64,000 nt of DNA. Origin: Escherichia virus TH44. Both the position numbers and the translations under genes were made by a program. Under the pieces are notes generated by a model. That model did not search any database. It was given only the letters and a program-made list of their open reading frames with translations, and was not told the origin of the DNA. Numbering within the stretch: position 1 is the stretch's first letter; every line of letters begins with the position of its first letter. Of the stretch, positions 1,602 to 63,028 are shown one piece after another. The stretch lies in the sequence record MT446415.1; one strand, given 5' to 3'.

Positions 1602-3548
1602 TTATAGTGTAATTGGTTCAAGGTCAATCTTTGTATATTGCGGACGAAGGTCATTCTCAAATACAATCAGTGAACCATCTTGCGTGTATATATTATCTTG
1701 GTTAGGACTTGCATAAAGTTCGATTGATTGAACTTCAAAGCGCTCGGAGGTCAATCCAATCGCGGCGATATCCCAAAAAATATAATCAGAGTAATAGTCA
1801 ATTTCGCCAATTGCGTAATAAACTGTTTGGTCAGCCGGAGCTTCCATTTTATTAAAGTCATCTTGCAGGTAAGGCTGGATGTTTACATTTTCAATAACAT
1901 CGCCTGGACGGAATGGACCAATTACCATTTTACCATCGCCACGAGAATCTTTATCAGTTGCAACAATGCGAACGTTATAGGCTTCACCCGTGGTCGGAAC
2001 AAATTCAAATTCACTTGATTCGACTGAACGGTTGCCATACTGGTTATAGTATTTAATGCCGGATTCTGGAGTCTTAAAGAAGTTCAGGACTTCACGCACC
2101 ATCGAAATGGTTGCAGATGAACCAAGAATACTATGGTCAGTATTATCCACATACGTAAGCATTTTTGACTTAGCAAAACTTCTGTTAAAGATTTCAACTT
2201 CATCGATATAATAACGGTCAATCTGATTAATGATTTGTGCTTGCAGCCATTGTTCAGATTCTTGTAATTTGTTCAGCGCATAAGATACTTTGATATTATG
2301 TTTAAGGAACAAATAATCCGGAGAAATTACCGAGGGTGTAATTGTTGATACGTTGAACTCGCTAAGGTAGTTCTGGATGTCCTCACGCTGCACTGCAGTG
2401 AGATACAAGCCCGATTTAGGCTTAACTGATATAAACGCATACCCAGGCTTATTTGCGTCTGTAAACGTCTGTACGGCTTGCACGATTGAACCAAATCTTT
2501 CAGATACGAAGGTATCATAATCTGTTCCGGTGACAGCACGCATCTGCGCTTCACGTTTAACAACAGCCAGTTCACGGATACGTTCGATATCTTCTGGGTC
2601 ACCACCGCCATCGGCACCGACATAATCAGGGTCGTTGTTGTAGTTTTCAGTAATTTTATCCACTGTGATATAAGACAAAGTATCGGCATAACTGAAATCA
2701 ACAGCGCCGTTTGCATCTGCCCCTGAGGTACGAAGATATTCAATAACAATTGTCGAATCTTGCACCGGTTTGAGACCGCCAATATAGTTGGCTTCCATAA
2801 CGCCACCGGCTACGGATTTGGTGGATTCACCTTCACCGAAGAAAAATTCAGTATAGCCATCGATTGTTTCACGCATATAAAATATGGTGGAAGTCGAACC
2901 AGCATGGACCATTGATTTGTTCGTCCAGTCAACCCACTCAACACCGTTCACATATAACTTAACTTCTTTGCGGTCGATATCCGGGTCGCGAATAAGAATA
3001 GGTTGTTTCGGGTCATATAAAAGTTCTGTACGAATAATACGGCCCTGGGCCAGAGATACAATCGGAAGGTATTGGTTGTTAATATCTTTAACCGCAATAA
3101 CGTTTTCCGTGGTAACAAAAACATAAGGGTCAGCTGATGTATCACGAGCATATGCCAGGAATTTAGTTCCTCGTGGGATTTCAATATTCGATGGTTGCAG
3201 AGCATGAGAACATGTCAACATAACCGAAGTCTTTGCGGCCGAACGTGAAGATGGAAGATATCCATTATCCTGTGCCGCCTGAACAACCGAAGACCTTAAG
3301 TTTGCAGTTCCGATAAATGATTCATAAACTGCTGTATTAGCAAACTGCTGCATATAAAGTGTATTATACGCAAGCATGTCAATCAGGATATTCATTCGCG
3401 AACCTACGAAATCATAATCCTTAAATTCATCCTGGCTTGATAACCAGTCGATGATGTTCTTTTTAATTTCTTCAAACGTAGCTCCCACAAATACTTTTGG
3501 GATAGCGTTAACGGTTCTTGTTAATTGGTAATTCGTAGGAGTAGCCAT
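1602..3548 (-). CDS. 6: baseplate wedge protein gp6
   Basis: 648 aa; N-terminus MATPTNYQLTRTVNAIP...DYDFVGSRMNIL matches remembered T4 gp6; T4 gene order. Confidence 0.9.
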   Translation of the reverse strand: MATPTNYQLTRTVNAIPKVFVGATFEEIKKNIIDWLSSQDEFKDYDFVGSRMNILIDMLAYNTLYMQQFANTAVYESFIGTANLRSSVVQAAQDNGYLPSSRSAAKTSVMLTCSHALQPSNIEIPRGTKFLAYARDTSADPYVFVTTENVIAVKDINNQYLPIVSLAQGRIIRTELLYDPKQPILIRDPDIDRKEVKLYVNGVEWVDWTNKSMVHAGSTSTIFYMRETIDGYTEFFFGEGESTKSVAGGVMEANYIGGLKPVQDSTIVIEYLRTSGADANGAVDFSYADTLSYITVDKITENYNNDPDYVGADGGGDPEDIERIRELAVVKREAQMRAVTGTDYDTFVSERFGSIVQAVQTFTDANKPGYAFISVKPKSGLYLTAVQREDIQNYLSEFNVSTITPSVISPDYLFLKHNIKVSYALNKLQESEQWLQAQIINQIDRYYIDEVEIFNRSFAKSKMLTYVDNTDHSILGSSATISMVREVLNFFKTPESGIKYYNQYGNRSVESSEFEFVPTTGEAYNVRIVATDKDSRGDGKMVIGPFRPGDVIENVNIQPYLQDDFNKMEAPADQTVYYAIGEIDYYSDYIFWDIAAIGLTSERFEVQSIELYASPNQDNIYTQDGSLIVFENDLRPQYTKIDLEPITL

Positions 3549-4381: not shown

Positions 4382-6124
4382 TTAGCCAATGTCAATCCTC
4401 GAACCATCAATAGTATATTGACCAGATGCAATAGAACTCATTGTTGACATTGTTTCGGACCAATTGCCAGCCACGGTCATATCAACGTTTCCATTAACGG
4501 ACCATTTGACATTACCATTTACCGTATAATCATGGTTACCTTCGACAAGAGTTTTTGCGTCACCTTTAACAGTTATTTCAGCATTACCTTCGACCAAAAT
4601 ACTTACATTACCTTTGACAATAATTGTACCGTCACCTTCAATGGTTTTGGTTTCATTCCCACGAATATGAATGCTTTCGTTTCCATCGGTCTGACGACGA
4701 ACGTTAGCCATATTATAATAGGTTTCATCACCACCAACGTTGACTTTATTATTACCGCCAACGTAAGTACTCGAATCGCCCTGGGTCATATAATAACCAT
4801 CAGCCACTGTCTTCGAAGTCTTACGACCGTCTGGTGCAACTTCCTCATAGGAACCGGTTGGATGAATCAGTCGATAACGTTCTTGTCCAGGGGTGTTATC
4901 AAATTCCTGAATATGACCGCCTTCAGTTTGCATTGTCTGCACGTAAGGATATTCGCCCTTGTAACTGGATTCTGGCTCTTTAAACAGAATCCTCGTATCT
5001 TCTGGAGTCCATGGGTCGGCTGGGTCAGAATTTGCAGGGGCTGCAAAGGTTTGAATCATCCTATATGAACGCCCTTTAAATGACCTTTCTTTAGGGGCCA
5101 TAATACCATATGATTCCATGTTACCTGTAAGGATAATCATTGATACCCTTGATGCACGGCCTTTAGTTTGGTTAAACCATACAGAATCACGAGCGGCATC
5201 AAATGCTTTCTTATAATCTCCAGCTAACATTGCAGCGAGCATCGTTTTAAATTTAGCAAGCCCACCCAATCCCATTTGGAAAGCCATGTTTTCAAGAGCC
5301 ATTTGTCTCGAACGGTTTTCTTTATTGTAAACTGGACCCACGACACTATGTCGACCTATATCGTTTTGCACTTTTTTAAGGTCTTCTTGGAATAATTTAG
5401 AGGCCTCGTCCATTGATATTGCACCAGGGTTACCTTTAACTTCACGGCCTATTTGATTAGATAATATTTTGTTTATCTGATTCATATCTCTAATAGGTTG
5501 TGGTGCAATCAAGTGTCCTATACCTATAGTAGGATAACCTTCGGTGTCCCAATATACTTTCAAACGAAGACCTTCATCACGGTGAAGCATATTTTCAATT
5601 GTGAAATTAGGATTATCATCTGGCTTAACTTGACTCAAATCAAGGCCATCGGGGTTAATACCAAGGTCAAGGTTTGCATCCTGAATTACGTTCGAAGTTG
5701 CATCATAACCGACCTCACCGCCTCGGTTGAGCGCAGCAGCATCATTACCTACATAAAGTGGATATTGTCCTGTGGGGTCAGAGAAGCCTTCGTTGGGATT
5801 TGCTTTTTGTCTTGAGGCTGAACCATATGTACCAAGGACTAATCCGTTAAGTTTCCACTTGTCTAAAAAGTGACCATACACTTGAGTCCCTGGCACCATA
5901 CCGGTCATTGCAGTTTGAATACCCGAAACTGATGCAGATGATGTTGGCATCAATACAGACATCCATGGCAGGTCTTCAGTTCTGATACCTTTTACAGGCC
6001 CTTGCGATTTCTCATATGGATGCATACCCCATACACGGACACGGACTCGACCTTGTTGAAGTGGGTCCATTCGGTCTTCGACAACACCGACGAACCAACT
6101 TACACTATCTGACATATTAATCAT
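4382..6124 (-). CDS. 5: baseplate hub and tail lysozyme gp5
   Basis: 580 aa; internal lysozyme motif GYPTIGIGHLI; C-terminal VxGxxxxx beta-helix repeats; start overlaps gene 53 stop (ATGA). Confidence 0.93.
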   Translation of the reverse strand: MINMSDSVSWFVGVVEDRMDPLQQGRVRVRVWGMHPYEKSQGPVKGIRTEDLPWMSVLMPTSSASVSGIQTAMTGMVPGTQVYGHFLDKWKLNGLVLGTYGSASRQKANPNEGFSDPTGQYPLYVGNDAAALNRGGEVGYDATSNVIQDANLDLGINPDGLDLSQVKPDDNPNFTIENMLHRDEGLRLKVYWDTEGYPTIGIGHLIAPQPIRDMNQINKILSNQIGREVKGNPGAISMDEASKLFQEDLKKVQNDIGRHSVVGPVYNKENRSRQMALENMAFQMGLGGLAKFKTMLAAMLAGDYKKAFDAARDSVWFNQTKGRASRVSMIILTGNMESYGIMAPKERSFKGRSYRMIQTFAAPANSDPADPWTPEDTRILFKEPESSYKGEYPYVQTMQTEGGHIQEFDNTPGQERYRLIHPTGSYEEVAPDGRKTSKTVADGYYMTQGDSSTYVGGNNKVNVGGDETYYNMANVRRQTDGNESIHIRGNETKTIEGDGTIIVKGNVSILVEGNAEITVKGDAKTLVEGNHDYTVNGNVKWSVNGNVDMTVAGNWSETMSTMSSIASGQYTIDGSRIDIG

Positions 6125-8727: not shown

Positions 8728-9400
8728 AATTAATTGCGATTGTGGGTAAAAAACGCAGTGGTAAAGATACGACTGCTGATTATGTTATTAGTCAAAACGG
8801 AACAAAGTGGCAGCTTGCAGGTCCGATTAAAGAAGCGCTTTATAAAGCGTGGATTCGTCAAGACCTGCCACACAATTTGACCCTGGAAAATTTTGATGGA
8901 CAAGGTTATGACCGTGAAAAAACCTTGATAATGAACAACACCGAAGCTCATATTCTTCTGGCTGATGCTCTTGAATGGTTGAAACAACAATACAATCTCG
9001 ACCTTCCGAATCCGGATATGGTTCGTAAAATTATTGAATTTCACACACTAAATAATGTTGAGCCCTGGACAGTTAGACGTTTCATGCAGACCCTTGGAAC
9101 TGACATTGTTTGTACAGAGTTCGACAGCATGTTTTGGATTAAAACTTTTGCCTGCGACTATCTTGACAACCTCTATTCTGGATATAAATATTACGTTGTC
9201 CCAGATGTTCGCCAAAAGAACGAACTTGATTCGCTTCGGGCGATGGGTGCTACAATAATCTTTGTAGAACGCGATGAAGCAAATCATTCTACTGATACAC
9301 ACATTACGGAAGCTGGACTTCCACCACTAGCTAGTGACATTGTTATTAAAAACGATGGCACACTCGAAGAACTTTTTGATAAAATTAATAAGGTAATATA

Positions 9401-18626: not shown

Positions 18627-18966
18627 TCTTGCATCACATGTTTATCAATTGGCTGAATATGATATTGGTGCCAGTTTATTATTAGGGATACCCACCGCCA
18701 TGCTTGGTGGTTTGGTTGGTCTGGTAATGACCACGGTTATGGCTGCAATCGAGGGAGTGATGCCCATTGAGATGGGTTTCTTTATGATAATCGCTCCGGC
18801 TGTTGTGTCTTATTTTATCCCTGTTGTGTATGATATCTGCCACACAAACGCCGTGAATGCTCCTAGTCGGAAGAGATATGCTTCAGCAATGGCTGAGTAT
18901 AATAAGTTCCTAGACAAAACAAAACGTAATGACCTTGAAACCTTTATTAAGGAATGTAAATCATGA
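18613..18966 (+). CDS. membrane protein
   Basis: ATG after aggagg; TM helices; C-terminus LETFIKECKS resembles end of the 22203 gene. Confidence 0.55.
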   Translation: MERPSLASHVYQLAEYDIGASLLLGIPTAMLGGLVGLVMTTVMAAIEGVMPIEMGFFMIIAPAVVSYFIPVVYDICHTNAVNAPSRKRYASAMAEYNKFLDKTKRNDLETFIKECKS

Positions 18967-19253
18967 ATAAAATTGAAATTGCTATCCCCAAGTATTATGA
19001 TGAGAAATCTGCAGAAAAAGCTATCTATTCTCTTCTAAATAAGACCTCTGAAATTGAAAAACACTGTGAAGAAATCGCAGATGAATATGGTATCGAATTC
19101 AGCACTGGCGATTACGGCACCGGCCGTACATATCACCCAGTCGGTTATGAATGTTCCGAATGGTTCGCTCACCATATTGAAAACAACGGCGGGCAAGTTG
19201 AAAACGGCATTGTTACTGTTGGTGCCTGGGTTTCCTCTTCTGAGGTGTGCTAA
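18963..19253 (+). CDS. W-SS-C tail family paralog 1
   Basis: 96 aa; ends ...GAWVSSSEVC. Confidence 0.6.
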   Translation: MNKIEIAIPKYYDEKSAEKAIYSLLNKTSEIEKHCEEIADEYGIEFSTGDYGTGRTYHPVGYECSEWFAHHIENNGGQVENGIVTVGAWVSSSEVC

Positions 19254-19254
19254 T

Positions 19255-19536
19255 ATGATGAATGATTACCGTAAAAATAAAGAACTGGCTAACGCAGTAA
19301 ATGATATCCATAAAGCTATTCGTCGTGCCGAGGAAATTGCAAACAAATATGAGACTCATTTTAATATATACCCTGCTCGCGGTATGGGCGGTGACTATTA
19401 TTCTCCTGGCGCCCTGAAAGCTGACCTTGCTCATTGGGAAGAACATGGTCATCCTGAATGGGCTATTGTTAATACTCATGACTATACAACTGACCTGGAA
19501 AAAGGCGGTTGGGTGTCCTCCTCTTCTGAATGTTAA
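19255..19536 (+). CDS. W-SS-C tail family paralog 2
   Basis: 93 aa from ATG after previous stop; ends ...GGWVSSSSEC. Confidence 0.6.
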   Translation: MMNDYRKNKELANAVNDIHKAIRRAEEIANKYETHFNIYPARGMGGDYYSPGALKADLAHWEEHGHPEWAIVNTHDYTTDLEKGGWVSSSSEC

Positions 19537-19544
19537 GGAATGTT

Positions 19545-19742
19545 ATGTCTCGTGAATTAGATTGTGCAATCCGTACTGCTGCGGCAGCTATTGAAAACGT
19601 TATCCAGATTTGTAAAGAAGAGCGTGAAGAAGCTGATATCTATATTGACGGTCAGCGTAATCTGGAACGTCATATCACGCTTTATAATGGTTGTATTACA
19701 ATTAGTGGTACCTCTTGGGTGTCCTCCTCTTACGAATGCTAA
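19545..19742 (+). CDS. W-SS-C tail family paralog 3
   Basis: 65 aa; ends ...TSWVSSSYEC; taaggaa SD. Confidence 0.6.
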   Translation: MSRELDCAIRTAAAAIENVIQICKEEREEADIYIDGQRNLERHITLYNGCITISGTSWVSSSYEC

Positions 19743-25777: not shown

Positions 25778-26323
25778 ATGAAAACGTTTTTAACCGGTAG
25801 TTATCTATCCCTGATGAATGCTTTTGCAAACCATTCTGATGCTAGAGTAGAACACATTTGTAATAGTGGGTTTTATGTACCCGATTCGCAAACCTTGTTT
25901 AAAGAATGTTGCACCTTAAAACTTGATGGTGGGCGCCAATCTGGTAAAACTAAAGCAGTATCCATTTTTGCTACGGAATGGTTAGCTGATGGCGGCTCTA
26001 TTGTTATTTTGTCTAATAACACGGCATATGCTAATGTTTCGGCTACTGCAATCCGAAAGGAATATTTTAATAACCATACAGAAAGTATTAAGCACCGCTT
26101 GTACACTGATTCTGTTCGTAGTTTTATTGGTAACACTGCATGTAAATTCCGTGGATTATCACTTTCACGGGTTCTGTATATAATTGATGAGCCTGTTAAA
26201 ACACCTGATATGGATAAGATTTATGATGCCCACATAAAGGTTGTGCATTATTGCTGCCGTGCATCATGTGAAGAAACCAATCAAACCACACGCCCTCTGT
26301 TCTTTGTGATAGGAATGCAATGA
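25778..26323 (+). CDS. small P-loop NTPase-like protein
   Basis: Walker A-like GGRQSGKT and Walker B-like LYIIDEP. Confidence 0.55.
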   Translation: MKTFLTGSYLSLMNAFANHSDARVEHICNSGFYVPDSQTLFKECCTLKLDGGRQSGKTKAVSIFATEWLADGGSIVILSNNTAYANVSATAIRKEYFNNHTESIKHRLYTDSVRSFIGNTACKFRGLSLSRVLYIIDEPVKTPDMDKIYDAHIKVVHYCCRASCEETNQTTRPLFFVIGMQ

Positions 26324-26619
26324 TGACCCATGAAGAGCTTTTTGACCAAATCTATTTTATTCCAAAGGTTAGGTCAGAAGATTTCGTAAAGAATTTTGAA
26401 ATCTTTAATAAAGCAAATTTCTTTGAGTATGTGTTTTTGTCTGGGCCTTTTAATGGGTCCAGATTTCGTTGCACTGCTCCGAGTATTCGCTTGATGAAGT
26501 TGGTTCCTTACTTTACTCTGGAATTTATTTCTGGACCGTGTAAGGGTATTATCACTCGTAGCCTCCTGACCTATGACCAGGATGTGCGATTAATTAGTGA
26601 CTGGAAAAAATATGTCTAA
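26320..26619 (+). CDS. hypothetical protein
   Basis: 99 aa, overlapping start/stop with neighbours. Confidence 0.55.
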   Translation: MMTHEELFDQIYFIPKVRSEDFVKNFEIFNKANFFEYVFLSGPFNGSRFRCTAPSIRLMKLVPYFTLEFISGPCKGIITRSLLTYDQDVRLISDWKKYV

Positions 26620-56340: not shown

Positions 56341-56370
56341 GTTTACAACGGCAATGGATTGCCGTATTAT
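56341..56370 (+). promoter_or_regulatory. early promoter (GTTTAC-N18-TATTAT) with palindromic spacer
   Basis: Directly after gene 43 stop; spacer contains cggcaat-gg-attgccg. Confidence 0.5.
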
Positions 56371-56407: not shown

Positions 56408-56650
56408 ATGGAAACATTAATTGCGGGTACTGTTGTTCTTGGTGCAGGTTCTTTCTTCCTGGCTGCACTGGCATATTTTCTGCCGTGGATTATCGCGCTG
56501 CTGCGTGGTACCAAAAGTAATTGTGGAATCTTCTTTGTTAACCTCCTGATAGGTTGGACAATGGTCGGATGGTTTATTGCATTTATCTGGGCACTCGTTG
56601 CTGAACGTAAATCAAACGCACAAGTAATTATCATCAAGGAAGCAAAATGA
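56408..56650 (+). CDS. small inner-membrane protein (Imm-like position)
   Basis: 80 aa, two TM helices; lies where T4 has imm. Confidence 0.55.
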   Translation: METLIAGTVVLGAGSFFLAALAYFLPWIIALLRGTKSNCGIFFVNLLIGWTMVGWFIAFIWALVAERKSNAQVIIIKEAK

Positions 56651-56790
56651 AGATAATTACAATTATTGTACTGATTGCATTTTTTAGTATGTCAATCTAT
56701 TGGGCAATAATGACTCCACATATGATTCCAACTTTAATTTTGGGTTGGGTATTTTTGGGGCTCCAAGCCCGCTATGAATGTTTTAATTAG
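56647..56790 (+). CDS. small membrane protein (47 aa)
   Basis: Below track cutoff; hydrophobic; ATGA overlap. Confidence 0.4.
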   Translation: MKIITIIVLIAFFSMSIYWAIMTPHMIPTLILGWVFLGLQARYECFN

Positions 56791-56798
56791 GAAGCAAA

Positions 56799-57302
56799 AT
56801 GAAAAAGTTAGCTATCGCAGCTGTTATGCTGCTATCTGGTTGTGCTTACCAGGGTGATGTTGTTAATGCCAACGAGATTGGTAAAGCGCGAATTGCTGCA
56901 GACCGTCAGGTGCATAATGGTTCCTTTGATTTCAAAGGTGGTACTGGACTTATCTACAAACGCGACAACAATCAATGTGGAAACAACTGCGCGAAATATG
57001 CTCAACAAGAAATTGAGTACAAACGCGAGCAAGCTGCGAAGCATGACGAAATCATTGCCAAGCTGGAAGCAGAAACCAAGCGACAAAATGACCTGGATAC
57101 TGTTAACCAGATTTCACAGGTCTGCATGTCATATATCAATATGCAGATAAACATCATGCGCGCAGAAGCTTATCAGGCAGCGGAGACGGGTTCTCCAAAA
57201 GCTAATGAGTACCGCGATATGTATCAGCGTTCTGCTCAAAACCGTCTGAGCTATATTAATAAATGTGTAGCTAAAGAGAAAGCACGCCAAGGTATTAACT
57301 GA
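56799..57302 (+). CDS. lipoprotein
   Basis: Signal peptide with lipobox MKKLAIAAVMLLSGC. Confidence 0.65.
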   Translation: MKKLAIAAVMLLSGCAYQGDVVNANEIGKARIAADRQVHNGSFDFKGGTGLIYKRDNNQCGNNCAKYAQQEIEYKREQAAKHDEIIAKLEAETKRQNDLDTVNQISQVCMSYINMQINIMRAEAYQAAETGSPKANEYRDMYQRSAQNRLSYINKCVAKEKARQGIN

Positions 57303-57644
57303 TGTTATTATTACTTCTGATTGTTGTAACAGTAATTGGTTTGTTGCTATTAGAAAAGCGTAATAAGCATTTGGCTGAAGAAAACTGGAAACGTGGTAAC
57401 GTTTACTAAATTACTCTGAACTGCGAGAAAAATATTATGATTGGTGCGCTATTGATTAGTCTGTGGCTGTTGTCTGCATTTGGTATTGGTTTTATGTACT
57501 GGTGGGACAAACGTCAGACCCGGAAGATTGTTGAACGTGCAATTAATCGTGGTTTCAATCGTTAATTGCTCTAAAAATACAGTGATATAATTATCCTATC
57601 TTAAACCTGTGAGAAAAATATAATGGTGCCTATGGAAAAAATGA

Positions 57645-58823
57645 ATGTCTATTGCAGATTTGAAATCCCGTTTGATTAAAGCTTCTACATCCAAAATGAC
57701 CGCGACTCTTACCAAGTCCAAGTTTTTTAATGATAAAGATGTAGTTCGTACAAAAATCCCGATGCTGAACATTGCAATCAGCGGTGCACTAGATGGTGGT
57801 ATGCAGTCAGGTTTGACTATTTTTGCTGGTCCGTCAAAACACTTTAAATCCAATATGGGTTTAACGATGGTCTCTGCATATATGAACAAATACCCCGATG
57901 CAATCTGTTTGTTCTATGATTCAGAATTTGGTATCACAGAAGCATATCTTCGTGCAATGAAAGTTGACCCGGAACGTGTTATCCATACACCAATCCAGTC
58001 GGTTGAACAATTGAAAGTTGATATGGTTAACCAGCTTGAAGCAATTGAGCGTGGTGAAAAAGTCATTATCTTTATTGACTCAATCGGTAACATGGCGTCG
58101 AAAAAAGAAACAGAAGATGCGATGAACGAAAAAGTCGTTGGCGATATGACCCGTGCTAAATCCTTGAAATCTCTATTCCGTATTGTTACTCCGTATTTTA
58201 GTATCAAGGATATTCCTTGTGTCGCGGTTAACCATACAATCGAGACGATTGAGATGTACAGCAAAACCGTTATGACTGGTGGTACTGGTGTTATGTATTC
58301 TGCTGATACCGTATTCATTATCGGTAAACGCCAGATTAAAGAAACCGGTAAAGAACTTGAAGGTTTCCAATTTGTTCTGAACGCCGAAAAATCTCGTATG
58401 GTCAAAGAGAAAAGTAAATTCTTCATTGATGTAAAATTCGATGGTGGGATTGACCCGTATTCTGGCCTGCTTGATATGGCAATGGAAATCGGATTTGTGG
58501 TGAAACCGAAAGTTGGTTGGTATAACCGTGAATATCTTGATGTTGAGACCGGTGAAATGGTCCGCGAAGAAAAATCATGGCGTGCAAAAGATACCAACTG
58601 TACTGAATTCTGGGGCCCGTTGTTCAAGCACGAACCTTTCCGTGACGCAATCAAACGTCATTACCAGCTGGGTGCAATCGATAGCAATGCTGTTGTTGAT
58701 GCCGAAGTTGATGCGCTTATTGCCTCCAAGGTTGAAAAATACTCCGCTCCTGAAGGTAAGACAAAACCGTCCGCGGCAGATATCGAAAACGATTTAGATA
58801 TGATGGAAGACCTTGATGAATGA
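57645..58823 (+). CDS. uvsX: RecA-like recombinase UvsX
   Basis: 392 aa; LKSRLIKASTSK, GPSKHFKSN (Walker A), VIIFIDSIGN, near-identical to T4 UvsX. Confidence 0.97.
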   Translation: MSIADLKSRLIKASTSKMTATLTKSKFFNDKDVVRTKIPMLNIAISGALDGGMQSGLTIFAGPSKHFKSNMGLTMVSAYMNKYPDAICLFYDSEFGITEAYLRAMKVDPERVIHTPIQSVEQLKVDMVNQLEAIERGEKVIIFIDSIGNMASKKETEDAMNEKVVGDMTRAKSLKSLFRIVTPYFSIKDIPCVAVNHTIETIEMYSKTVMTGGTGVMYSADTVFIIGKRQIKETGKELEGFQFVLNAEKSRMVKEKSKFFIDVKFDGGIDPYSGLLDMAMEIGFVVKPKVGWYNREYLDVETGEMVREEKSWRAKDTNCTEFWGPLFKHEPFRDAIKRHYQLGAIDSNAVVDAEVDALIASKVEKYSAPEGKTKPSAADIENDLDMMEDLDE

Positions 58824-61688: not shown

Positions 61689-61892
61689 ATGTATAAATTA
61701 GAGAACGTAGTGTTTATTGGTTGGTTTGAAAATGGTAATATGTTTACCAAAGAAACCGCGCTGGATGTCAGTGACAAAAATATGATTGAATGGGTTACAG
61801 TGCAGTATGCAGAAGTGAATAATGCGCTGGTTAAAGCCTTTGTTAATGACAATAAAGTTTTTGAATATGATGCCCGCATTGAGGAAATCTAA
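61689..61892 (+). CDS. hypothetical protein
   Basis: 67 aa; ends ...ARIEEI; weak paralog of next gene. Confidence 0.5.
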   Translation: MYKLENVVFIGWFENGNMFTKETALDVSDKNMIEWVTVQYAEVNNALVKAFVNDNKVFEYDARIEEI

Positions 61893-62234
61893 ATGACTTT
61901 TAATCCAGAAGACCGCGTAAAAGTAACAATCAAAGTGAGTGCCGTTGGCGTTCCATCTTTTGAGCGCTCAAGTATGTTCCATCCCGCAGGTATTCACTGG
62001 TATGTCCAGAAGACTGCTGATAACTATAATGCACTGGTTGAAGCTTTTGTTGATGACAAGCTAATTCATAAAGTAGACATGCGTAAGGGTACTGCATTGC
62101 GTAATCTGATTTTGACCGTTGAAGCTCAACTGGTAAATGAAGAAATCTGCCTTACTGATATTGAAGCGGCTCTTCATATTGCGCGTGCTGAATATTACAA
62201 CTTGACTGGTTTTTCAGTTGAAGGTGAAAAATAA
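61893..62234 (+). CDS. hypothetical protein
   Basis: 113 aa. Confidence 0.55.
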   Translation: MTFNPEDRVKVTIKVSAVGVPSFERSSMFHPAGIHWYVQKTADNYNALVEAFVDDKLIHKVDMRKGTALRNLILTVEAQLVNEEICLTDIEAALHIARAEYYNLTGFSVEGEK

Positions 62235-62292: not shown

Positions 62293-62586
62293 ATGAAAAA
62301 GTTATTAATCGCAGCAATTCTTACCGTAGCATCATGTGGTACAGCTCCAGTTACTGCTGGACTTGATAAAGACCTTTGTGAGTGGTCTATGACTGCGGAC
62401 CAGACTGATGTTGAACACCAGATTTATGCTGACATCATGAACATTACTAAACGTGACCGCCCAGATATGGTTAAAGAAGTATCTGACCAACTGGCTTCTG
62501 GTGACGTTATGCAGTATAACTATGTTCTGTATTGCGATGCTTCATTTGACAACAGCAAGATTGTTCAATGGGTTACAGGTGAATAA
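62293..62586 (+). CDS. lipoprotein
   Basis: Signal peptide with lipobox MKKLLIAAILTVASC. Confidence 0.6.
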   Translation: MKKLLIAAILTVASCGTAPVTAGLDKDLCEWSMTADQTDVEHQIYADIMNITKRDRPDMVKEVSDQLASGDVMQYNYVLYCDASFDNSKIVQWVTGE

Positions 62587-62587
62587 A

Positions 62588-63028
62588 ATGATTAACAGAA
62601 ATTTAGTTATCAAAAAACTTCGTTGTAAAAATCAAAATGCACAAGCATACAGGATGTTTTGGAGCGACGAGCCCATTCAATACCTGGGTTATTTTCTTGT
62701 TGATAGTGATAATAGAATTACGTTTGCTCATAAACTTCTTAACAAAGAATTAAACCATTGGCAAGAACTTATTGCGGTCAAGTCTAAATTATTTTCGCGC
62801 AATACAATACACCAATTGGTTTATTTTTTCGCTGATGGTATTCCTGACAAGGTTGAGTTTGACGGGTTTGAATTTAAAGACATCAACCCTGATAATGAAT
62901 TGAATGACAGTATTGTTAATATGGGTATCCCGGGTAAGTACATCAAAAACAGTCTTTTGAAACTTCTGGAAACCCCTGTATATTCAGTTGACGACCAGAT
63001 TTTTAATGCCTTCATGAAGCGAGATTAA
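62588..63028 (+). CDS. hypothetical protein
   Basis: ATG 1 nt after previous stop (track ORF 62453 is another gene's region); ends DDQIFNAFMKRD. Confidence 0.55.
   Translation: MINRNLVIKKLRCKNQNAQAYRMFWSDEPIQYLGYFLVDSDNRITFAHKLLNKELNHWQELIAVKSKLFSRNTIHQLVYFFADGIPDKVEFDGFEFKDINPDNELNDSIVNMGIPGKYIKNSLLKLLETPVYSVDDQIFNAFMKRD

Follow-up and report, generated by a model that had tools for sequence, protein, structure and literature searches.

In phage T4, superinfection is restricted jointly by Imm and Sp, which also curb lysis from without and the premature collapse of lysis inhibition (PMC7677548, PMC7650644, PMC6832632). T4 Imm prevents productive DNA entry by the superinfecting phage (T4 imm RefSeq note; PMC6832632). 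Sp, also known as Spackle or gp61.3, is a soluble protein: when T4 gp61.3 was overexpressed and released from the periplasm by freeze-thaw, it was a major soluble species (PMC7650644, Kanamaru et al.), and N-terminal sequencing showed that its first 22 residues had been removed, so that the mature protein starts at Gly23 (PMC7650644). For T4 Spackle, a Cys29-Cys81 disulfide and the gp5 contact residues Ser32, Met33, Thr34, Ala35, Gln37 and Asn76 have been named (PMC7677548, Shi et al.). The basic gp5 residues that contact Spackle are Arg181, Arg182, Arg187, Lys189, Arg312, Lys321 and Arg326 (PMC7677548), and Gly322 of gp5 is the site of a Spackle-bypass mutation (PMC7650644).

The window analysed here is a stretch of DNA of 64,000 nucleotides. 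Megablast searches returned VR7, VR20, VR26, SP18, RZ, '212' and other Escherichia and Shigella phages at 93-98% identity. VR7 is classified within the Tevenvirinae, in the genus Gaprivervirus, and the source of the window is very likely a T4-like phage of this VR7/SP18 group (Gaprivervirus) that carries the standard T-even exclusion pair imm and sp. The gene order in the window is T4-like, with 44-62-regA-43, further on uvsX-40-41 and then sp, dmd being located after 41. A preliminary description had pointed to four ORFs following gene 43 and gene 41, at the places that imm and sp occupy in T4. Both positions agree with this gene order, and the four ORFs were recovered at exactly 56408-56650, 56647-56790, 56799-57302 and 62293-62586. 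In profile searches, all four proteins matched PHROG families over their full length, with E-values of about 1e-27 to 1e-47, and homologues of the four ORFs are present in hundreds of T4-like phage genomes. This indicates that the ORFs are real genes and did not arise by chance. In addition, ribosome-binding sites of the AAGGA/AGGAAG type were found before imm, the 47-aa ORF and the lipoprotein gene, and GAGGAG was found before sp. The proposal that exclusion factors are encoded at the imm and sp positions was thus correct as far as the loci are concerned, but the genes are those of T4 itself and not non-homologous newcomers. Their presence at these positions is already known, as imm and sp are annotated in the sister phages VR7 and SP18.

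The imm gene (56408..56650, plus strand; ribosome-binding site AAGGA) encodes a predicted inner-membrane superinfection immunity protein of 80 aa. Its product scored 61.9 bits on Pfam PF14373, 'Superinfection immunity protein' (E=5e-17), where the cut-off is 27.9, and it matched phrog_1039, 'immunity to superinfection', with E=1e-29. When aligned to T4 Imm, 43 of 83 positions were identical (52%; E=4e-29) and residues 1-80 were covered. Judged from these sequence comparisons, the 80-aa protein is the orthologue of T4 Imm. In a Kyte-Doolittle analysis, the protein showed two hydrophobic segments, one spanning roughly residues 3-33 and the other roughly 39-66, in keeping with the two-helix membrane protein described before. 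The T4 protein, of 83 aa, likewise has two hydrophobic helices, and both proteins contain the motif LPW-IAL-RG-KS ... GW. The gene is named imm in VR7, SP18, JS98 and many other phage records, and in tblastn searches about 1,200 phage records contained a relative. In both T4 and the window, imm is located downstream of gene 43. However, in T4 imm.1 lies between the two, whereas in the window imm follows 43 directly, and gene 42 and beta-gt do not come after it. By analogy with T4, Imm would be an early product in the inner membrane that stops the DNA of later T-even phages from crossing this membrane.

Between the stop codon of gene 43 and imm, we found a sigma-70-like promoter match (TTTACA-17-TATTAT; 56342..56370, plus strand; 10 of 12 positions). 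The promoter scan yielded 2 sites where 4.6 were expected from shuffled sequence, and hence fewer than chance, so that the match is no more than a weak candidate for an early promoter of imm.

The second member of the pair, sp (62293..62586, plus strand), encodes a 97-aa protein that starts with MKKLLIAAILTVASC. It matched PF25676, 'T4 Spackle', with 147.8 bits (cut-off 27; E=1e-43) and also phrog_1586. Searching with the same protein, we found T4 Spackle structure 6X6O with E=4e-38 over residues 1-97, and 6XC0, 6XC1 and 7CN6 were likewise matched. The 97-aa protein is, by its sequence, the orthologue of T4 Spackle (gp61.3; 6X6O, 6XC0, 6XC1, 7CN6 and 7CN7) and is predicted to inhibit the gp5 tail lysozyme in the periplasm. 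Both proteins have 97 aa and are about 66% identical, and they have the signal peptide, the cleavage site, the Cys29-Cys81 pair and the gp5-contact residues in common. Cys29, Cys81, Ser32, Met33, Thr34, Ala35, Gln37 and Asn76 are all identical to T4, the differences being minor substitutions. In both genomes, sp is located downstream of 41 and dmd. The gene is annotated in VR7, and tblastn found it in about 900 phage records, where it is mostly labelled 'spackle periplasmic protein'. The earlier statement that the proteins at the two positions are not recognisably similar to T4 Imm or Sp was therefore wrong, given 52% and about 66% identity and matches to both Pfam families.

The target of Spackle is also encoded in the window. 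Gene 5 (4382..6124, minus strand), for the baseplate central spike and tail lysozyme, matched T4 gp5 structures with E=7e-259. According to our reading of the alignment, six of the seven basic residues that contact Spackle are identical (Arg182, Arg187, Lys189, Arg312, Lys321 and Arg326), whereas Arg181 is replaced by His. Gly322 was kept as well. By analogy with T4, Sp would be exported into the periplasm by means of a cleavable 22-residue signal peptide and would there form a 1:1 complex with the gp5 lysozyme domain in the tail spike of an arriving phage, thereby inhibiting the lysozyme. Inhibition of gp5 would then prevent penetration of the cell wall and lysis from without. The family identity of both Imm and Sp comes directly from the comparisons above, and we infer their mechanisms in this phage from T4 on the grounds of orthology.

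Directly after imm, a 47-aa ORF is located at 56647..56790 on the plus strand. It encodes a predicted small membrane protein with two hydrophobic segments, in line with the hydrophobic peptide noted previously, and it matched phrog_3610 over its full length with E=8e-27. The T4 homologue is an ORF of 49 aa directly after imm (Y02C/gp42.1; L001 9228-9377, minus strand), which matched the same family with E=1e-25 and has no annotation in the RefSeq record of T4. The two peptides are 51% identical and both contain the MIPT and KYECxN motifs, and no notable difference was seen between them. The homologue is named gp42.1 in VR7 and RB51, and in RB69 it is described as 'similar to T4 42-imm intercistronic region'. 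One homologue matched PF26865, Phage_T4_Y02C, a newer Pfam model. Homologues with the motif ...IYWAI-TP-MIPTLI-GW...LQAKY-x-CFN were found in JS98, X20, PEi20 and PM2, so that the peptide is well conserved between genera, and tblastn found it in 512 phage records.

The next gene (56799..57302, plus strand) encodes a protein of 167 aa, which is predicted to be a lipoprotein of the outer membrane and belongs to the T4 Imm.1 family (phrog_1754). The protein begins with MKKLAIAAVMLLSGC and has the lipobox LSGC, with Cys15 as the lipobox cysteine. The signal peptide carries basic residues close to its start and ends in a lipobox of the form [LVI][ASTVI][GAS]C. This lipobox passed the PROSITE PS00013 pattern, the G+LPP pattern and the strict pattern. 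Of 41 family representatives, 39 retain it; one of the other two is a fragment, and the second, P0037, has a conventional signal peptide and lacks a lipid anchor. The match to all three patterns and the conservation in the family uphold the earlier assignment of this ORF as a lipoprotein with an LLSGC lipobox. The residue at position +2 is Ala, Val, Gln or His in the family and never Asp, and it is Ala in the window protein. Following the E. coli Lol sorting rule, the absence of Asp at this position predicts an outer-membrane location, and the lipoprotein is probably located in the inner leaflet of that membrane.

The relationship of this lipoprotein to T4 Imm.1 was seen by profile comparison. 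The 167-aa protein matched phrog_1754 with E=7e-47 over profile positions 2-147 of 148, and T4 Imm.1 matched the same family with E=6e-43 over positions 2-146. The T4 protein, encoded between 43 and imm, has 125 aa and starts with MKIAILVIALGLAGC. It matched Pfam DUF5481 (PF17578) with 239 bits, whereas the 167-aa protein gave no match to this model at E<=1 and nothing significant in Pfam overall. In BLASTP, the two proteins aligned over the first 28 residues only (50% identity), and hhalign aligned the 167-aa family to the Imm.1 profile with 97.9% probability (E=6e-13), this alignment being limited to the N-terminal 55 columns. Given the PHROG match and a profile match confined to the N-terminus, the 167-aa protein belongs to a diverged Imm.1 subfamily outside the Pfam DUF5481 model. 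Both proteins have an [LV]-x-G-C lipobox and the mature-start motif QG-x-VV-x-x-[SN]-[ED]-[VI]-GK, both have four cysteines in the mature chain, and both genes adjoin imm. However, the genes are located on opposite sides of imm, and the T4-type Imm.1 lacks the G-x-G-L-x-Y-x-R-x-x-NQCGxNC hairpin motif of the window protein. Within the family of the 167-aa protein, Gly14, Cys15, Cys60, Cys109 and Cys156 are invariant and Cys64 is nearly so, on account of which two disulfides are probably formed in the periplasm. No function has been described for Imm.1/DUF5481 or for Y02C/gp42.1 in the literature searched, where unrelated 'Imm. 1' strings swamped part of the results.

To describe the fold of the lipoprotein, we used an AlphaFold2 model made from 20 sequences (mean pLDDT 72). 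In this model, the N-terminal 60 or so residues are poorly defined and a hairpin is placed at the conserved G-x-G-L-x-Y motif. Helices were modelled at residues 63-130, 135-147 and 149-163, with pLDDT values of 83-95 from about residue 81 on, which makes a helical C-terminal domain probable. Foldseek searches of the PDB with the model returned generic helical hairpins only, the best with E=1.9 and none with E<1, and in BFVD the only meaningful match was the family's own homologue from JS10. The small proteins gave nothing above threshold in PADLOC and NCBIfam. A match to a 'T6SS immunity lipoprotein' model was rejected, as it reached 17 bits against a cut-off of 43 bits and covered the signal peptide alone. 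Similarly, P0040, a cell-wall-binding-repeat-like protein of 676 aa, matched the N-terminal hairpin region of the lipoprotein five times (E=4e-5), and we dismissed homology as this is a weak resemblance amplified by repeats.

The lipoprotein family is small, with 26 representative clusters among 1.84 billion proteins. As sampled, it is phage-borne, the contigs examined being T4-like, and it occurs in phages of Escherichia, Serratia, Edwardsiella, Pectobacterium and Enterobacter. The lipoprotein is also the most diverged protein of its neighbourhood. It has about 32% identity to T4, whereas Imm, Sp and the 47-aa peptide reach 51-66%, and the flanking proteins (replication, assembly and Dmd) reach 46-79%.

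We also compared the gene neighbourhood across relatives. The order in T4 is 43 - imm.1 - imm - ORF49 - 42, whereas it is 43 - imm - 47aa - lipoprotein in the window, VR7 and JS98. In RB69, imm.1 - imm directly precedes sp, at a distance of about 10 kb from gene 43, near which the Y02C homologue has stayed. The lipoprotein gene is therefore at most one gene away from imm in three gene orders (T4; window/VR7/JS98; RB69). This tendency to move together with imm hints at a related role. On the other hand, synteny of the replication gene block is conserved generally, which weakens guilt by association. In X20, PEi20, PM2, CIP9 and two metagenomic contigs, the lipoprotein gene directly follows 43 without an adjoining imm. 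The order is 43 - lipoprotein - sugar isomerase in X20, PEi20, PM2 and the two metagenomic contigs, and a Y02C-type ORF comes after the isomerase in X20, PEi20, PM2 and contig L015, with none listed in CIP9 or contig L016. Edwardsiella phage PEi20 carries both the lipoprotein and the 47-aa homologue, whereas neither Imm nor Sp was found there by tblastn and HMM searches in 150 of its 178 kb, including all early regions. On this evidence, the function of the lipoprotein cannot strictly depend on Imm or Sp. The lipoprotein gene stays near imm through three rearrangements and is part of an imm.1-imm-sp cluster in RB69, yet it is kept in lineages of the PEi20 type, which appear to lack Imm and Sp.

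Several other explanations of these genes were considered. One is that the T4 positions of Imm and Sp have been taken over by new, non-homologous envelope proteins, which act there as new exclusion factors. The 167-aa lipoprotein, to which no function is assigned, fits this in a weak sense only, and the idea is hardly credible for the two genes in question, whose products exceed the curated Pfam cut-offs of both families by a wide margin, can be aligned end to end with the T4 proteins and are encoded by genes annotated as imm and sp in relatives. The homology results refute such a replacement, and the two genes are best taken as the T4 exclusion pair. Within this pair, the preliminary description had considered Sp a second lipoprotein, with TVASC as its lipobox, which conflicts with the N-terminal sequencing of T4 Sp, a protein that is soluble in the periplasm and starts at Gly23. 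Lipidation of Cys15 with membrane anchoring of at least part of the protein, possibly as a minor lipidated pool, would account for the VASC match to PS00013 and for the conservation of Ser14-Cys15. These two residues do not vary among the 28 full-length Spackle cluster representatives (from 5.8 billion proteins) or across six phage genera down to 48% identity, while the adjoining positions of the signal peptide do. But the stricter G+LPP pattern was failed because of Ser at -1, and the canonical signal peptidase I site is just as invariant, with Pro19, Ala22 and Gly/Asn23 conserved in 28 of 28 representatives. Moreover, the Spackle crystal structures were made with residues 23-97, and the T4 protein taken from the periplasm was a major soluble species with Gly23 at its N-terminus (PMC7650644). 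A lipidated Sp is thus improbable. The window protein keeps the V20-T21-A22|G23 cleavage site with Pro19 upstream, and by this site and its orthology to the sequenced T4 protein we take Sp to be a soluble periplasmic protein and not a lipoprotein.

For the lipoprotein and the 47-aa peptide, our best guess is that they are accessory factors which remodel the envelope as part of the early infection programme. A role in exclusion or in protection from secondary adsorption is possible but rather unlikely, the argument being drawn only from gene neighbourhood and predicted envelope location. It is likewise rather unlikely that the lipoprotein, perhaps together with Y02C/gp42.1, forms a third T-even envelope factor, whether for exclusion, for withstanding lysis from without or for shielding the envelope in some other way. 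Llp of T5 and Cor are small phage-encoded outer-membrane lipoproteins that are made early in infection and block the receptor, which results in superinfection exclusion. Were the 167-aa lipoprotein to act in the same manner and inactivate the outer-membrane receptor of its own phage from the membrane's inner face, it would block superinfection and spare the progeny from adsorbing to debris. The outer-membrane-type lipobox in 39 of the 41 representatives, with its lack of Asp at +2, is compatible with this, and so are the position in an early-gene block adjoining imm and the relocation together with imm to a place beside sp in RB69. The high divergence, the highest in the neighbourhood, would fit a lineage-specific target. 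However, the likeness to Llp and Cor is a functional analogy between small early phage lipoproteins of the outer membrane, as no similarity of sequence or fold was found in Pfam, the PDB (no match with E<1) or BFVD (the JS10 homologue only), and PADLOC gave no match either. The family also spans phages of five host genera, whose receptors presumably differ, and it includes P0037, which lacks the lipid anchor. Imm by itself, expressed from a plasmid, is reportedly sufficient for immunity, as Lu and Henning are said to have found in 1989. We therefore regard receptor masking as unlikely. A role in lysis, with the lipoprotein and the 47-aa peptide as a spanin-like or holin-like pair, is very improbable. 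A small membrane protein encoded next to an outer-membrane lipoprotein looks superficially like an o-spanin and its membrane partner, but the two genes are part of the early replication block, away from the lysis genes, and they are split by other genes in X20, PEi20, PM2 and RB69. In T4-like phages, the spanin pair is pseT.2/pseT.3, the latter being listed as a membrane protein in the annotation of PEi20. The 167-aa lipoprotein is also helical in the model and not proline-rich, and so a lysis role was rejected on location, size and composition.

The impact of these results on annotation is small, since imm and sp are textbook T4 exclusion genes that are already labelled as such in the sister phages. 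The remaining interest is modest and concerns the Imm.1-type early lipoprotein family, the 47-49-aa membrane peptide and the invariant cysteine in the signal peptide of Spackle. These could refine the view of how T-even phages shield the envelope of the infected cell, which is of relevance for cocktails that contain several T4-like phages.

Downstream of the lipoprotein gene, two more short ORFs were seen on the plus strand, each with a single predicted transmembrane segment and neither with a family match in Pfam or PHROG. The ORF of 42 aa (57437..57565) is conserved in the DNA of VR7, where it is not annotated. The ORF of 35 aa (57302..57409) is a candidate coding sequence located in an insertion of about 100 bp that is not present in VR7.

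The spackle protein Sp (97 aa) carries within its signal peptide (window 62293-62358) a Ser14-Cys15 pair that is invariant in all full-length Spackle homologues examined (alignment A3, proteins P0043-P0071), both among the 28 cluster representatives and across six phage genera. The pair forms a lipobox-like x-x-S-C, and the signal-peptide residues around it are variable in the same set of homologues. T4 Sp is nevertheless cleaved after residue 22 and yields a soluble product (PMC7650644). For the Imm.1-family lipoprotein encoded at 56799-57302, the lipobox is replaced in one family member, P0037, by a signal peptide of the ordinary type (…FGVNA|E…), and therefore the predicted lipid anchor is not universal in this family.

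When other phages were compared, the imm.1-imm pair of RB69 was found directly upstream of sp (2155-3190 in the RB69 region L011, corresponding to RB69 18654-19689), so that imm.1, imm and sp make up an envelope cluster of three genes, which lies about 10 kb away from gene 43. The RB69 Y02C homologue (ORF054c) remains at the gene 43 locus. Edwardsiella phage PEi20 encodes both the Y02C peptide and a lipoprotein of the Imm.1 family after gene 43. In the PEi20 regions searched, L012-L014 (1-100000 and 128000-177643, on either side of the late structural genes at 100-128 kb), neither tblastn (E<=0.5) nor small HMMs detected a homologue of Imm or of Sp.

In T4, a 49-aa ORF belonging to a conserved family lies directly 3′ of imm on the minus strand (9228-9377 in the T4 region L001, about 26227-26376 in NC_000866.4). 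It is absent from the RefSeq annotation of T4, is kept across Tevenvirinae (phrog_3610, PF26865 Y02C) and is named gp42.1 in VR7 and RB51. The JS98 homologue of the corresponding 47-aa peptide of the window, gp044 (2383-2493 in the JS98 region L003), is annotated with a length of only 36 aa, and its start codon was probably mis-called. T4 imm.1 (L001 9637-10014) is called ‘iduronate sulfatase’ in NC_000866.4. This label looks like an annotation error, because the product is a 125-aa DUF5481 lipoprotein that lacks an iduronate sulfatase domain. Other records name this protein ‘immunity protein’, apparently owing to the nearness of its gene to imm.

Whereas gene 42 (dCMP hydroxymethylase), beta-glucosyltransferase and segA are positioned between imm and uvsX in T4, tblastn found no homologue of any of the three in the whole 64-kb window, including 56650-57645. 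Between the lipoprotein gene and uvsX we found two plus-strand single-TM ORFs, neither with a family match: one of 35 aa (57302-57409) inside an insertion of about 100 bp not present in VR7, and one of 42 aa (57437-57565), which is conserved in VR7 DNA and carries no annotation there.

Further along, a Dmd-like antitoxin gene (61689-61892) encodes a 67-aa protein with 57% identity to T4 Dmd. The ORF immediately after it (61893-62234, 113 aa) contains a segment that weakly resembles Dmd (PF17587, E=0.0017, below the cut-off; phrog_2102, E=9e-6) and may be a tandem Dmd paralogue; the pair is also found in VR7. Overlapping sp is a mechanically called GTG ORF of 191 aa (62453-63028). Its phrog_8539 match begins only at residue 46, and therefore translation most likely starts at the ATG at 62588, which directly follows the stop codon of sp; the product would then have 146 aa, like VR7 ORF039c.
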